Positions 2,394-64,000 of a stretch of DNA of 64,000 nt are shown one piece after another. Source of the DNA: an uncultured Thiotrichaceae bacterium (GTDB lineage Bacteria; Pseudomonadota; Gammaproteobacteria; Beggiatoales; Beggiatoaceae). Both the position numbers and the translations under genes were made by a program. The notes below the pieces were generated by a model. It had not been told where the DNA came from. It searched no databases and saw nothing but the letters and a program-made list of their open reading frames with translations. Where the stretch lies: assembly GCA_964388965.1 (NCBI GenBank), contig CAYMCP010000001.1:12422-76421 (forward strand), in the 5' to 3' direction. The stretch's first letter is position 1. Each line of letters opens with the position of its first letter.

Positions 2394-4307
2394 ATGAAAA
2401 AGTTTCTGACCACTTCAGGGTTGATGATCGGGTTGGCGTTATTTGTAGCAATCAATATCTTGAGCAATACAACTTTAAAATCATTTCGTTTGGATTTGAC
2501 AGAAAATAGCCTGTATACCTTGTCAGAAGGCACGAAAAATATTTTAGCTAATCTTGATGAACCGATTACACTCCGTTTTTATCTCTCTGAAAAATTAGCG
2601 ACACGATTACCGGGTATCAATACTTACGCAAATCGTGTTAAAGAATTGTTAGAAGAATATCAACGTTATGCTGGCAATAAATTGCGTTTGGAAATCATTG
2701 ATCCCGAACCTTTTTCTGAACAAGAAGATCGGGCGGTCGGCTATGGTTTGCAAGGCGTGCCATTGGACACTAGTAACACAAGCTTTTATTTTGGTTTAGT
2801 CGGCAGCAATGCTGTTGATACCGAAGAGACGATTACTTTTTTTCAGCCAGATCGTGAAGCATTTTTAGAGTACGATGTCAGCAAATTGGTGTACAACTTA
2901 GCAAATCCTAAACAGCCTGTTATGGGCATAATGAGTAGTTTACCCATTCAGGGTAGTTCAAATCCTTTCATGCAAAATACCAAGCAGCCGATTATGATTG
3001 TAGAGCAACTACGACAACTGTTTGAGGTGCGCACATTGGAAACAACGGTTTCTCGTATTGATGCCGATATTGATGTGTTGATGGTAGTGCATCCTAAAGA
3101 TTTATCCGATAACACATTGTATGCGATTGACCAATTTGTATTGGCTGGTGGACGTGCGATGATTTTTGTTGACCCTTACGCAGAAACGGATACACCGCCG
3201 CAAGACCCACAAAATCCATTTGCTAATGTGAATGCGCCACGTCACTCTAATTTGGCAAAGTTATTCGACCAGTGGGGAATTGAATTATTACAAGATAAAG
3301 TGATTGGAGATATGAATCTTGCGCAACGGGTACAAATTCGTAAAGATTCACGCGCAATAGTAATTGATTATCCGGTGTATATGGATTTGAATGCAGCAGA
3401 ATTATTTAGCTCGAATGACATGGTTACAGGCGATTTAGGTAATGTCAACGTAGCGACAGCAGGTAGTTTGACCCATAAAGAGGGTGCAAGTAGTGAAATG
3501 ATAGCGTTAATGATGACTTCAAGCCAAGCAATGGCAATTGATAGTAGTAAACTTGGCATGTTTGCTGACCCTGAGGCAATTGTGCAAGATTTTAAACCTG
3601 AGCAACAGTACACTTTAGCGGCGCGTATTACGGGTAAAGTTAAAACGGCATTTCCCGACGGTAAACCTGTAAAATCTACAGAATCTAATAAGGAAGAGGC
3701 ATCCTCTCCAGAAGAGTCTACTCTCCCGCATTTAGCTGAATCAAAAGGTAGTATCAATGTGATTGTGGTTGCGGATACTGATTTATTACAAGATCAATTT
3801 TGGGTACAGGTGCAGAATTTCTTAGGTCAACGGATTGCGATACCTTTGGCTTCTAATGGTGATTTTGTAACCAATTCGATTGAGAGTTTAATGGGTAATA
3901 ATGATTTGATTAGTGTACGCAGTCGTGGTAGTTTCACGCGACCATTTACCAAAGTTGAAGAAATTCAAAAAATGGCAGAGCAACGTTTTCGTGAAAAAGA
4001 GAAAGAATTACAAGCGCGTTTAGAGCAAACTGAACAAAAATTAATCGCGCTCCAAAATCAAAAACAGGGTAATAGTGCATTATTATTAAGCGCGGAGCAA
4101 CGTGAGGAAATCGAGCGTTTCCGTCAACAAAAAGTCCAAATTCGCAAAGAATTGCGCGACGTACAACATCAATTACGCAAACACATTGAAATCTTAGAAA
4201 GTCAAATGAAATTTGTTAATATTGGTCTTGTTCCACTATTTATCGCCATAGGTGGTATTGGTTTAGCCTTTTACCGCCGCGAAAGAAAAACCTTGAAACC
4301 TGCGTAA
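2394..4307 (+). CDS. GldG-like auxiliary component of an ABC-type (gliding-associated) transport system
   Basis: N-terminal TM segment followed by RLDLTENSLYTLSEGTKNIL...ITLRFYLS, characteristic of GldG/ABC_transp_aux. Has a C-terminal coiled coil and a TM anchor. No gldA/gldF-like ABC genes are adjacent. Confidence 0.75.
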   Translation: MKKFLTTSGLMIGLALFVAINILSNTTLKSFRLDLTENSLYTLSEGTKNILANLDEPITLRFYLSEKLATRLPGINTYANRVKELLEEYQRYAGNKLRLEIIDPEPFSEQEDRAVGYGLQGVPLDTSNTSFYFGLVGSNAVDTEETITFFQPDREAFLEYDVSKLVYNLANPKQPVMGIMSSLPIQGSSNPFMQNTKQPIMIVEQLRQLFEVRTLETTVSRIDADIDVLMVVHPKDLSDNTLYAIDQFVLAGGRAMIFVDPYAETDTPPQDPQNPFANVNAPRHSNLAKLFDQWGIELLQDKVIGDMNLAQRVQIRKDSRAIVIDYPVYMDLNAAELFSSNDMVTGDLGNVNVATAGSLTHKEGASSEMIALMMTSSQAMAIDSSKLGMFADPEAIVQDFKPEQQYTLAARITGKVKTAFPDGKPVKSTESNKEEASSPEESTLPHLAESKGSINVIVVADTDLLQDQFWVQVQNFLGQRIAIPLASNGDFVTNSIESLMGNNDLISVRSRGSFTRPFTKVEEIQKMAEQRFREKEKELQARLEQTEQKLIALQNQKQGNSALLLSAEQREEIERFRQQKVQIRKELRDVQHQLRKHIEILESQMKFVNIGLVPLFIAIGGIGLAFYRRERKTLKPA

Positions 4308-60729: not shown

Positions 60730-61326
60730 GTGCGTTATTTTATTATATTTTTTCTGTATTTTTTCAGTTTACCATTGCAAGCAATAACACAAATTGGTGT
60801 ATCTGTAACAAATTTTACCTTAGCTGATAGTTGGGGCGATCCGGTAAAATTATCTGATTTTGCGGGTAAATATGTCGTTTTAGAGTGGATTAATCCTGAT
60901 TGTCCGGACGTTAAACGCCATTACATACAAAAAACCATGCAAAATTTAGCGTATAACTATTTAGGTGATGATATTATATGGTTAGCGATTAATAGCACGT
61001 ATTACATGACTCAAGAAGATAATCAGCGTTGGCGACAATTAAATCAAATTTTTTACCGTGTCTTAGACGACCATCGTGGTGAAGTAGGACGAGCATTACA
61101 AGCAAAAGTAACACCACAAATGTTTATCATTAATCCTAAAGGTATTTTAGTGTATAAAGGTGCAATAGATAACGCACCAAGCGGTGTTGCAACATTAAAT
61201 TACGTGCAAGCTGCATTAGATGAGTTAGTAGCAGGTAAGACAGTCACTTATCAAGAAACAGAGCCATACGGTTGTGCTGTGAAATATCCAGCCAGAATGC
61301 TAGATTTAAATGCAGTTAGAAAATAA
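60730..61326 (+). CDS. Secreted thioredoxin-fold (redoxin/TlpA-like) protein with a single active-site Cys
   Basis: AAGGAGG at 60717-60723, 6 nt before GTG 60730 (the track starts at ATG 60700, overlapping the lpxB stop). Signal peptide ...SLPLQA. The motif WINPDCPDVKRHY has only one Cys where CxxC would be expected. Confidence 0.6.
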   Translation: MRYFIIFFLYFFSLPLQAITQIGVSVTNFTLADSWGDPVKLSDFAGKYVVLEWINPDCPDVKRHYIQKTMQNLAYNYLGDDIIWLAINSTYYMTQEDNQRWRQLNQIFYRVLDDHRGEVGRALQAKVTPQMFIINPKGILVYKGAIDNAPSGVATLNYVQAALDELVAGKTVTYQETEPYGCAVKYPARMLDLNAVRK

Positions 61327-61337
61327 ATATTAATAAA

Positions 61338-61376
61338 TTAGGTATTGCGCTAAAAAAATTATTTTTTAATACCTAA
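61338..61376. terminator. Perfect 9-bp hairpin between the convergent redoxin gene and DUF2063 gene
   Basis: TTAGGTATT (61338-61346) pairs with AATACCTAA (61368-61376). The A/T-rich loop contains runs on both strands. The right arm overlaps the last codons of the minus-strand gene. Confidence 0.45.
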
Positions 61377-62117
61377 CACTATTTCTTGTGTCAACCACAT
61401 TTGCAAGATACCCAATCCACCTTGAATTACGGTCTCTGGCTCAGGATGCTGTAATTCCTCTGCGATTTCGCTCAACAATTGCTGTCCTGTTTTATCTGCA
61501 TCATTTTTAAGCAATTTTTCTAGTAAACGCGCACTGACAGGATTTAACAATATAAATTTAACGTTATCAGTCAAATTACGGTAGACCAATAAATAAGTTG
61601 GCTGCTCTGGTGGCTCGGCAGGCTGAAAATCTGGACTAATTTGATGAACAGGATACTGATATACCAAACCCCAGACTGTTGGGTTTAGAGAAGGTACACC
61701 CGTTAATAAATCACCTGTTTGATTAATTTGACTTAAATCCGCTTCACGGGTATCAATCGCTACTGCTAACTCGACCCACTCGTAATGTGCTAATTCATAT
61801 AAAAAATTTGGCTCGTCCGGTAATGATTCATGCTCATCTTCCAAATAACGTAAGAATTCTTGCGGCATTTGTGGGAATAACGGCGTTTTACATTGGTGTT
61901 TAATCATAAATTGCCGCGTTAAATGTTGCCATTGCTCAGGTGACAAGATTTTGTGTAACACGCGATAGGTATTCGCTAGTAAATTTTTGATATTATTGTA
62001 GAATAATTCATTATACACAGTCATACGTTGCTGAGAGACATCGGCAAGCAATGGCACATGTTCTGGGTTGCGAATATGGGCTGTGAAAGCGTATTGAATC
62101 TGTTGAAAACTAGCCAT
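61359..62117 (-). CDS. DUF2063-family protein (BufC/HvfC-type partner of DUF692 enzymes)
   Basis: N-terminal [16 protein letters not shown]...[17 protein letters not shown]...FP pattern typical of DUF2063. Its ATG overlaps the DUF692 stop by 8 nt (ATGGCTAG). Confidence 0.75.
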
Positions 62118-62952
62118 GTTGCACTTTTTTAATTGTTTCAGTGTAATGAGACTGAATTTTAATAATCATATCTAATTCTTGCATCAATGTTTCTAATGGC
62201 GGAATATTGAAATCACGTTCTAATAAGGTCGGAAATACACCAAAATGTTGATAAGCTATAGCCAACAATTCCCAGACCCGTTCAATCACCGCTGCACCAT
62301 GCGTATCAATAATAAAATCCTGCTCATTATAGTGACCTGCAATATGCGCATAAACGATGCGTTCACTAGGCAAAGCTCGCAAGAATGATATTGGATCATA
62401 ACCATGATTAACGCTATTAACATAAATATTATTTACATCAAGCAGTAAATTACAATCTGCCTCACTCAAAACTGCATTAATAAAATCAATTTCTGCCATT
62501 TGCATTCCGGGTGCTGCATAATAGGACGCATTTTCCATTGCAATTTTACGTTCCAAAATATCTTGAGTACGACGGATGCGCGCGGCAACATAATGAACCG
62601 CCTCTTCGGTAAAAGGAATTGGCATTAAATCGTACAAATGTCCATCATCAGCACAATAAGTCAAATGGTCGGTATAATCTAGGACGTGATGAGTATCAAG
62701 AAATTGTTTAATGCGTTGTAAGAAGGGTTCATCTAATGGTGCGGGACCACCGATATTTAATGATAAACCATGCGCTACAACGGGATAATTTTCAGTGAAA
62801 TAACGTAACTTCTTGGCGAGACGACCGCCTACACCAATCCAGTTTTCAGGCACTAGCTCGATAAAGCTAACTTGTTGAGGAGTCTGTTGCTCCAACGAAT
62901 CTAAGAAATCTCGTCGGAGCCCCAAACCCGCGCCACGTACTTTATAATTCAT
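62110..62952 (-). CDS. DUF692 / UPF0276 protein = multinuclear non-haem iron oxidative enzyme (MNIO, MbnB/BufB-like)
   Basis: [10 protein letters not shown]...FIELVPENW...HGLSLNIGG...DHL...MENASYY...[18 protein letters not shown]...HIAGH are hallmark DUF692 blocks. I set the start at ATG 62950-62952 because the track's longer ORF (to 63060) overlaps the upstream peptide gene in another frame. Confidence 0.85.
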
Positions 62953-62980
62953 AGCGAGAGTAATAGCAAAAGTGAGTAAA

Positions 62981-63211
62981 TTATTCCACTTCTTCTGCTT
63001 CTTCTTCAGAAGGTTCTTCTTCTGACATACCTTTAGTTTCTTCTGATTCTGCTTCCTCAATGACTTCTTCAGGAGCAGCTTCTGACATACCTTTAACTTC
63101 TTCTACAGCTTCTTCAGATGTTTCAGTTGCAGGTACTTCTTCAGCATAAACAGGCGTAGTCGCTACCGCGATAGTAAAAACAGAACCAAGAGCTAAAGCT
63201 GATTTATTCAT
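62981..63211 (-). CDS. Secreted 76-aa peptide, extremely Glu-rich and Cys-free; candidate precursor or partner of the MNIO system
   Basis: AAGAGGA RBS 8 nt upstream of the ATG. Sec-type signal [23 protein letters not shown]. The mature 53 aa contain 24 Glu. KGMSE occurs twice, 20 aa apart. The gene ends 28 nt upstream of the DUF692 ATG. Confidence 0.65.
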
Positions 63212-63694
63212 TGGAGTGTTCCTCTTTTGTTTTGGTTGGTTGGAGAAAACAGTACCGCAACACGGCTGAAACTTGGTCTAGTAATCAATTCCAACATAGT
63301 CAAAGCACTGCTAAAAGACGTTATATTTATGCTGCTACAAATTGTATCCAATATTTGACATTATTGGTAAGTTTTCATAAAAAGTCAACAGGTAATTTTA
63401 TATTTTTTTATAACATTGATATTTTATTGATTAATTCACTAAGTTTAGTTTTATTTTTTATTTAAATACAAATAGATAAGCTATCAAACGGTTAGGCAGT
63501 AATATCAATTTAATGCCAGAATATCTAAATTAGCATTTAAAATTAAAAAAATGCTATATTAAATAACTATAAATAAAAAAAGGTGATTATAAGATATTTA
63601 GGAAATACTTATATAAAATATCCGTGACAATCCGTATTCAACTAAGTTAATAATTTAAGCTATTTAGTAAGGAATTATGATATTAGTTGTGTTT

Positions 63695-64000
63695 TTACCA
63701 CAATATTGGTGTTTTCCCAACTTTTTCTAAATATTGGTTAGTTTGACTAAAGTGATGATTATAAAGAAATTTTTTTACAGAAAATGGTGAAGGATGTGCT
63801 GATTTTAAAACTAAATGTCTGTTCTCATCTATAATTTTACCTTTCTGTTGTGCATAGTTACCCCACAGGATAAACACAACTTGTTGCTTTTCAATATTAA
63901 TTAGACGAACGACGGCATCTGTAAATTGCTCCCAACCCTTATTTTTGTGTGAAGCCGGCTCTGATTCGCGGACAGTTAAAATAGAATTAAGTAGTAAAAC
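63695..64000 (-). CDS. ung: Uracil-DNA glycosylase, C-terminal part (N-terminus lies beyond the window)
   Basis: ...VFILWGNYAQQKG...SAHPSPFS...HFSQTNQYL are typical UNG motifs. The reading frame stays open upstream of the track's Met to the window edge. Confidence 0.85.
   Translation of the reverse strand, partial: VLLLNSILTVRESEPASHKNKGWEQFTDAVVRLINIEKQQVVFILWGNYAQQKGKIIDENRHLVLKSAHPSPFSVKKFLYNHHFSQTNQYLEKVGKTPILW

Follow-up and report, generated by a model that had tools for sequence, protein, structure and literature searches.

A cysteine-free, glutamate-rich peptide in the precursor position of a predicted oxazolin-type hvfABC operon in a clade of Beggiatoaceae

The locus considered here lies near one end of a 64,000-nucleotide stretch of DNA (the window; assembly GCA_964388965.1, contig CAYMCP010000001.1, positions 12,422 to 76,421 of the forward strand) from an uncultured Thiotrichaceae bacterium, and comprises three co-directional genes on the minus strand. 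These encode, in order, a peptide of 76 aa (62981..63211), an oxidative enzyme dependent on multinuclear non-haem iron (MNIO), 280 aa long and belonging to the DUF692 family (PF05114; 62110..62952), and a protein of 252 aa with a DUF2063 N-terminal domain and an NGO1945_C domain (61359..62117). The peptide gene is separated from the MNIO gene by 28 nt, and the MNIO and DUF2063 genes overlap by 8 nt (ATGGCTAG). An earlier annotation made from the DNA alone (the sequence-only reading) had described an MNIO and DUF2063 operon of the type that makes peptides synthesised by ribosomes and modified after translation (RiPPs), whose only adjoining peptide is Cys-free, Glu-rich and signal-bearing. That description holds, and its coordinates, gap, overlap and repeat positions were all correct on recomputation. 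The peptide gene is kept upstream of the MNIO gene across a group of related loci from giant marine sulfur bacteria, here called the Albibeggiatoa clade. In the list of open reading frames (ORFs), the MNIO gene starts at a TTG codon at 63060 (62110-63060, minus strand; 316 aa) and crosses the peptide gene, which is GAA-rich, in its +1 frame; this extension is an artefact of alternative frames that lack stops, and the orthologues begin at the ATG at 62952.

The first 23 residues of the peptide (63143..63211) form a Sec-type signal peptide with typical n/h/c organisation and a cleavage-like end (VYA↓EE). Of the 53 aa of the mature part, 24 (45%) are Glu, and Cys, His, Trp, Tyr and Phe are all absent, as had been counted before. 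KGMSE occurs twice, at aa 40-44 (63080..63094, within E-V-K-G-M-S-E) and at aa 60-64 (63020..63034, within E-T-K-G-M-S-E), and these copies are covered by the 17-nt direct repeat CTTCTGACATACCTTTA (63079-63095 and 63019-63035). A Shine-Dalgarno sequence, AAGAGG (63221..63226), stands 9 nt ahead of the ATG, so that the good ribosome-binding site and Sec signal reported earlier are both borne out. Among the 149 window ORFs of at least 50 aa, only 2 contain a stretch of 30 aa with at least 40% acidic residues. The mature part is predicted to be disordered, which the low scores of an AlphaFold2 model of the peptide fit (mean predicted local distance difference test score 56, predicted template modelling score 0.14).

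The peptide was compared with Pfam (E up to 1) and NCBIfam profiles, and no family was recovered, including DUF2282, the bufferin models and the HvfA models. The window peptide and four other members of its family gave no match to the HvfA models NF050137 (KCGExKCG_twice) and NF050188 at E up to 10, whereas HvfA proteins from a sister lineage, used as positive controls, reached 61.6 and 29.3 bits on the NF050137 model (cut-off 19.5). The view that the peptide stands outside the described precursor families is thus upheld. Weak NCBIfam matches to "sunset domain variant" models such as ArfC_sunset were obtained with the acidic tails of several family members (P0001-P0003 and P0004; 14-17 bits against a cut-off of 100). 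These models appear to describe low-complexity acidic extensions, and a literature search on the domain returned no paper.

The operon had been labelled bufferin-like by the sequence-only reading, and this label does not survive the profile comparisons. The MNIO scores 424.4 bits on the HvfB model NF003818 (cut-off 360) and 340 bits on PF05114 (MbnB_TglH_ChrH; E = 8e-102), but only 262.4 bits on the BufB model NF050167 (cut-off 310) and 84.7 bits on the ApyH model NF050151 (cut-off 400). The DUF2063 protein scores 303.1 bits on the HvfC model NF050145 (cut-off 142) and also matches PF09836 and PF22106. Because the HvfB and HvfC scores lie above the NCBIfam cut-offs and the BufB score below its own, the enzymes are assigned from their sequences to HvfB and HvfC, of the oxazolin ("Lys-Cys", EGKCG) branch, and not to BufB and BufC. 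The nearest solved structure to the window HvfB is 3BWW, a DUF692 protein of Histophilus somni (E = 5e-74), and the iron-ligand motifs are complete (VAHG, TDHL, MEN, LDVNN, AHIAGH, DTHG, LERDF).

In the literature covered, Cys is the residue acted on by all characterised MNIOs that have a DUF2063-type partner. HvfA is the oxazolin precursor, and HvfB and HvfC turn the cysteines of its AEGKCGEGKCG units into copper-binding heterocycles (PMC11252979), which are now assigned as 5-thiooxazoles, the substrate Cys thiolate being proposed to bind ferric iron (bioRxiv 10.64898/2026.07.17.739211). HvfC alone binds HvfA in H. influenzae (PMC11252979). In the related FonBC system, with its E-x-K-C-G repeats, Cys replacement abolishes processing, Pro is not tolerated, and the residue after Cys must be Gly or Ala; Arg15 and Arg16 of FonB touch the Glu, Phe250 touches the Lys and Gly, Asp249 is the catalytic base, and MNIOs of the Lys-Cys type are marked by Arg16 and Phe250 (PMC13097082). 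The corresponding residues of the window enzyme, matched to FonB by motif position and not by alignment to FonB, are Arg13, Arg14, Asp247 and Phe248; all five HvfBs of the Albibeggiatoa clade have them, as do, at each position, at least 152 of 155 other sequences. A survey of MNIO clusters lists about 2,000 "Buf_EGKCG/oxazolin" proteins, and the orphan upstream ORFs reported there all have Cys (1-18 residues) (PMC12452194). A full-text search returned no paper tying MNIOs to a Cys-free precursor of this kind, and the arrangement that the sequences suggest here, in which a Cys-less peptide takes up the precursor slot of an oxazolin-type operon, appears to have no description in the literature searched.

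Compared with HvfA-HvfB-HvfC(-HvfX), the oxazolin system known from nontypeable Haemophilus influenzae, and with the wider "Buf_EGKCG/oxazolin" or "Lys-Cys captophorin" clusters (PMC11252979, PMC12452194, PMC13097082), the window locus has the same peptide-MNIO-DUF2063 order, a short gap and overlapping enzyme genes, and likewise the iron ligands, catalytic Asp, Arg-Arg pair and Phe, an HvfA-like signal peptide and short mature repeats. It differs in that the peptide lacks Cys, EGKCG or KCGExKCG units and an NPF..SGYM segment, is about 45% Glu rather than rich in Gly, Lys and Cys, and has no DoxX (HvfX) gene beside it. Bufferin loci (BufA of the DUF2282 or BUF_6/12Cys type, BufB, BufC and DoxX; PMC12452194) share with it a Sec-signal precursor, an MNIO and a DUF2063 partner, but the window MNIO is under the BufB cut-off, the peptide has neither Cys nor a DUF2282 match, and a DoxX gene is missing. 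The earlier statement that no DoxX-like fourth gene is present was confirmed over the 64-kb window and the 6.6 kb past its end, and no EGKCG peptide is encoded in either.

Searches of 5.8 billion proteins with the peptide as query, and of 1.84 billion representative proteins with a profile, returned close relatives only, besides one spurious eukaryotic repeat protein. Conservation beside the enzyme genes, on which the sequence-only reading had made its case depend, was found: Cys-free acidic ORFs stand upstream of orthologous enzyme pairs in at least nine distinct versions, namely those of the window (P0001), of L001, L002 and L003, P0002 (locus L082), P0003 (L166), P0004 (L163-L165), P0005, and L170, whose peptide is partial. 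No family member has a Cys in its mature part. The signal peptide is near-invariant, and the tail is variable, rich in Glu, Ala, Pro and Val, with the motif [ED]-x-K-[GN]-[MT]-[SM]-[ED] in one to three copies (one in P0005). Met and Ser of KGMSE had been put forward as candidate modification sites; the repetition of the motif stands, but the Ser and the first Met are not invariant (KGTSE, KNMSE, KGMME and KGMSD occur), at least one Met being found in every copy. The gap to hvfB is 25-35 nt, matching canonical hvfA loci, and the order RDD, UbiE, UDG, peptide, HvfB, HvfC is observed in every family locus with enough flank.

Within the clade the ratio of nonsynonymous to synonymous substitutions (dN/dS) of the peptide gene is 0.13-0.46, and indels comprise whole codons. 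These values, the near-invariant signal peptide and the upstream conservation in at least nine versions together argue that the ORF is a real gene and not a chance ORF. The synonymous divergence of the peptide gene between clade members (pS 0.17-0.49) is clearly below that of hvfB, hvfC, udg and ubiE (0.43-0.83); it may be that Glu is encoded almost solely by GAA, that the gene is highly expressed, or that the nucleotide sequence itself is constrained.

The distribution of the peptide was examined in 160 loci encoding HvfB relatives (80 from genomes and 80 from metagenomes). A canonical HvfA, built of a signal peptide, an NPFxMxELSSGYM segment and EGKCG(EGKCG) repeats, is encoded upstream in 142, either adjoining or with only DoxX between; 12 have no Cys-repeat peptide across the fetched stretch, most of them being DoxX-HvfB-HvfC loci; three end at contig ends. 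The remaining three (L001-L003), all labelled Candidatus Albibeggiatoa, carry the Cys-free acidic peptide. HvfBs of this clade are 85-87% identical to that of the window, followed, after a gap, by a sister group at 71-75%, and the Cys-free peptide is restricted to the former; the four sister loci inspected (L004, L167, L168 and L169) all have a canonical EGKCG peptide. A metagenome scan with HvfB recovered no further loci of the Albibeggiatoa clade, the top match being 69% identical.

The signal peptides point to a common origin with HvfA. That of L003 and that of the L169 HvfA align without gaps over 26 residues (16 identical, 24 similar), the score of the family N-termini on a hidden Markov model of HvfA N-termini was reached by only 0-4 of 500 composition-preserving shuffles, and hhalign gave a probability of 77%. 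For the mature acidic region, comparisons with canonical HvfA cores and with a Met/Glu-rich insert in the HvfA of L167 did not rise above composition-preserving shuffles, 1 of 10 being nominally significant, and homology to HvfA is thus indicated for the signal peptide alone. The NPFxMxELSSGYM segment, an observation from these loci and not a published criterion, appears in a consensus built from 100 canonical HvfAs (chosen for their SGY motif) and is absent from all peptides of the Albibeggiatoa clade. Matching hvfA in position, strand and spacing, the peptide gene is its positional counterpart, with a homologous signal peptide, and not an unrelated ORF.

Several canonical HvfAs show features that bear on the composition of this peptide. 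In Nitrosomonas L019 and L056, and in L073, some repeats are Cys-less (EGKAD, EGKDG, AEEKAEGKAEEKAEG), so that loss of Cys from single repeats is tolerated in other lineages. EF-hand-like segments (DADGDGKVTKDEF, DKNADGVLDAKE) lie between the EGKCG repeats in L014, L018, L020, L023 and L055; EF-hand-fused variants of the HvfA family have been described, with an architecture that differs somewhat (PMC12452194). The HvfA of sister lineage L167 (2479-2949) has a long Met/Glu-rich insert between EGKCG repeats (EAMTPEEK, METMSDEEK, MDEMTPQQ), and a P-type ATPase with an HMA domain, copper-ATPase-like (1-131), is encoded about 2.3 kb upstream of that hvf operon; both fit a copper-related role for the family. 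Such Met/Glu-rich spacers and EF-hand fusions indicate that acidic cation-binding segments are already in the repertoire of the family.

Upstream of the peptide gene, a promoter-like site (TTGACT-17 nt-AATAAT, 10 of 12 consensus positions; 63360..63388, minus strand) lies about 150 nt before the start codon. In an alignment of the intergenic region from five loci of the clade, this site and the Shine-Dalgarno sequence fall within the best-conserved blocks, and an (A)AAGAGGA..CCAATG block is kept in all five. The count of promoter-like sites in the region is not above that of shuffles. In the clade promoter block, a heptamer, CTATTGA, overlaps the -35 box and recurs just downstream, and the -10 box is overlapped by CAATAG, which is CTATTG in reverse complement (L001:900-960, L002:3500-3560, L003:3500-3560, about columns 120-180 of alignment A3; 63340-63395 on the minus strand of the window). 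The window copy is degenerate (CTGTTGA, CAATAA, ATATTGG). This arrangement could be the operator of some regulator. The 5' untranslated region of the window peptide gene contains a terminator-like hairpin, GCCGTGTTGCGGT, with a T-rich run after it (63254-63266, minus strand), which L001-L003 and L082 do not conserve. An Rfam scan of 61000-64000 gave no match.

The enzyme genes are under strong purifying selection. In comparisons among clade members, hvfB has a dN/dS of 0.03-0.08 and hvfC one of 0.05-0.06, compared with 0.04-0.13 and 0.02-0.08 for the neighbouring udg and ubiE, synonymous sites being near saturation. Among columns at least 95% conserved in canonical relatives, HvfB retains 110 of 113 (changes A34V, S98T and L213F) and HvfC 40 of 41 (change P52R). 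These substitutions, and a small cluster in HvfC at positions 145-148 and 190, were considered as signs of a clade-specific retuning of the enzymes, which was rejected since as many changes, or more, are seen in other clades that are equally isolated but have canonical HvfA. By their sequences, HvfB and HvfC look like ordinary functional thiooxazole-forming enzymes. That they are not retuned and keep the residues reported to read E-x-K-C-G favours a substrate encoded elsewhere, or an adjoining peptide that is no canonical substrate, over a different chemistry.

Taking these comparisons together, it is held with high confidence that the operon is of the hvfABC type, that its hvfA has lost all Cys repeats, and that hvfB and hvfC are canonical and under selection; the same confident claim includes the Cys-less state being fixed and old in one genus-level clade of Beggiatoaceae. 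In this Candidatus Albibeggiatoa-like giant sulfur bacterium, the first gene would have retained the position, promoter, ribosome-binding site and Sec signal peptide of hvfA, and would have lost the NPF..SGYM segment and every EGKCG repeat in exchange for a disordered, polyglutamate-rich tail with one to three motif copies.

What the parts now do is less certain. In the reading preferred here, the product of the remodelled Cys-less gene would reach the periplasm free of thiooxazoles, as an acidic peptide that bears Met, and HvfBC would act on a Cys substrate encoded elsewhere; as a whole, this is given about even chances. Since the characterised HvfB-type reaction starts with an iron-bound Cys thiolate, and Cys replacement blocks processing, the peptide cannot receive thiooxazoles; it would leave by the Sec pathway without this modification and may serve in the periplasm as a binder of cations or metals. 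PcoE and SilE belong to the disordered proteins, rich in Met and acidic residues, that bind metals in the periplasm. The window peptide resembles them in being secreted, acidic, probably disordered and Met-bearing, without Cys; no sequence relationship exists, however, and the family has only 2-4 Met and no His. Co-expression with HvfBC would then reflect only the inherited first position in the operon, while HvfBC would still convert Cys to 5-thiooxazole in an EGKCG-type peptide or protein from elsewhere in the genome. Possibly hvfA was duplicated, which left the copy in the operon free to diverge.

This reading is preferred because the enzymes are not retuned, Cys is needed in the reaction as characterised, the position of the peptide can be explained as inheritance, and HvfBC without a local precursor recur in other lineages. 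The 12 loci without an adjoining precursor indicate that pairs lacking a local precursor are a recurring arrangement. Seven of these DoxX-HvfB-HvfC loci (L036, L037, L046, L057, L062, L063 and L077) are gammaproteobacterial, several being complete chromosomes of 1.8-2.0 Mb, and for about 4 kb to each side no frame encodes an EGKCG peptide (DoxX at about 3260-3915, HvfB from about 3970). The substrate of these pairs must either have its gene elsewhere or be of a different kind. They share with the window canonical enzymes and the absence of an adjoining Cys peptide, but have DoxX and no upstream peptide gene, whereas the window has a conserved Cys-free peptide, one that looks expressed, in the precursor slot.

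Some observations weigh against the preferred reading. A second Cys substrate was found neither in the 64-kb window, nor in the 6.6 kb beyond it, nor at any locus of the Albibeggiatoa clade; a profile search with HvfA N-termini from the sister lineage (7009 proteins) showed no Albibeggiatoa label among the 120 matches listed, which decides nothing either way. The short motif kept in an otherwise variable tail, with an acidic residue and a Lys in the register of E-x-K-C-G, could reflect engagement by HvfBC. The peptide also stays the first gene, with promoter and ribosome-binding site conserved despite saturated synonymous sites, which would fit a continuing link to the enzymes. Both explanations offered by the sequence-only reading, a new chemistry and a true substrate encoded elsewhere, are accordingly still live, the latter being at least as likely as the former.

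In the strongest of the other explanations, which is nevertheless thought rather unlikely, the Cys-free peptide is the true substrate and HvfBC modify the repeated motif without Cys, for instance at Met/Thr, Ser or an acidic residue. An MNIO of the HvfB branch, otherwise a canonical former of thiooxazoles, would then catalyse a new non-Cys reaction, and RiPPs with signal peptides would gain a new class. The peptide occupies the precursor slot of a tight operon, at the same 25-35 nt from hvfB as canonical precursors, its motif of one to three copies is the sole conserved mature feature, as the EGKCG repeats are in HvfA, and [ED] stands two residues ahead of Lys, in the register of E-x-K-C-G. 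Purifying selection on the enzymes is strong, and the neighbourhood yielded no other substrate. MNIOs are also known that act on other residues: ApyH converts a C-terminal Asp to aminopyruvate, and others form ortho-Tyr in biphenomycin-like peptides (PMC12257519, PMC12452194), so that the fold can oxidise residues other than Cys. These enzymes are, however, distant from the window HvfB (85 bits on the ApyH model, against 400) and have a different partner type and precursors without signal peptides (PMC12452194). Neither HvfB nor HvfC of the clade shows retuning beyond that of equally isolated canonical clades, and the catalytic Asp is kept, as are the residues reported to read E-x-K-C-G. Behind the Lys every motif position varies (among them G/N, M/T and S/M), and the motifs of L003, P0003 and L170 read D-P-K-G-M, whereas FonBC needs Cys, rejects Pro and wants Gly or Ala after Cys (PMC13097082).

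It is less probable again, and on balance doubtful, that the peptide is a non-reactive ligand of HvfBC, its motif being a fossil EGKCG docking unit, with a role as regulator, competitor or chaperone-like partner, or in a step dependent on HvfC before export. The [ED]-x-K register is present in every motif copy, and MAFFT places E-T-K-G-M on E-G-K-C-G with Lys on Lys; in a peptide with 45% Glu, however, an acidic residue is expected at a given position about half the time. Binding of HvfA by HvfC alone in H. influenzae (PMC11252979) and co-expression of the three genes from one predicted promoter would agree with such a role. Pro at the second motif position in several members would be disfavoured if the rules of FonBC hold (PMC13097082), and the literature covered gives no precedent for a role of this kind.

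A decaying system, in which hvfA has degenerated and hvfBC are left over without a current peptide substrate, would account for the loss of all Cys repeats and of NPF..SGYM and for the lack of DoxX or another precursor nearby. It is nonetheless very improbable, as hvfB and hvfC are intact in all clade members and, at dN/dS values of 0.03-0.08, constrained like udg and ubiE or more so, while the peptide itself is under purifying selection, with promoter and Shine-Dalgarno sequence conserved. A Cys peptide read in another frame can practically be dismissed: each KGMSE-coding repeat does encode a Cys in the +1 frame (L-K-V-C-Q-K), which is open into hvfB as the 316-aa ORF from TTG 63060, but long open frames are expected in GAA-rich DNA that is stop-free in its other frames, the product has no signal peptide and is out of frame with hvfB in L003, its Cys is not conserved, being gone from the KGTSE copies (second repeat of L001, sole repeat of P0005), and K-V-C-Q is not an EGKCG-type context.

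The clade offers a natural experiment, with enzymes near-unchanged over a long divergence and a peptide without any Cys in the precursor slot. Should HvfBC act on a peptide encoded elsewhere, adjacency alone would be an unreliable guide to precursors in genome mining; should the Cys-free peptide be their substrate, the large MNIO family would have a wider chemistry than thought. The system may also have a bearing on periplasmic metal handling by giant sulfur bacteria in sulfidic mats.

Downstream of the operon, the gene encoding a redoxin is convergent with it, as the sequence-only reading had stated, but the protein has two Cys in total and not a single one, one of them in a CPDV context resembling an active site. 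The redoxin was discarded as a partner of the operon, since in relatives its place downstream is taken by other genes, namely mutL (L001-L003 and L170) or a rotamase gene (L163). Two records used in the survey carry labels that look like binning or annotation errors: the metagenome-assembled genome of L018 is labelled "uncultured Halobacteria archaeon", and the 5.3-Mb Methylocaldum record of L078 "plasmid unnamed".

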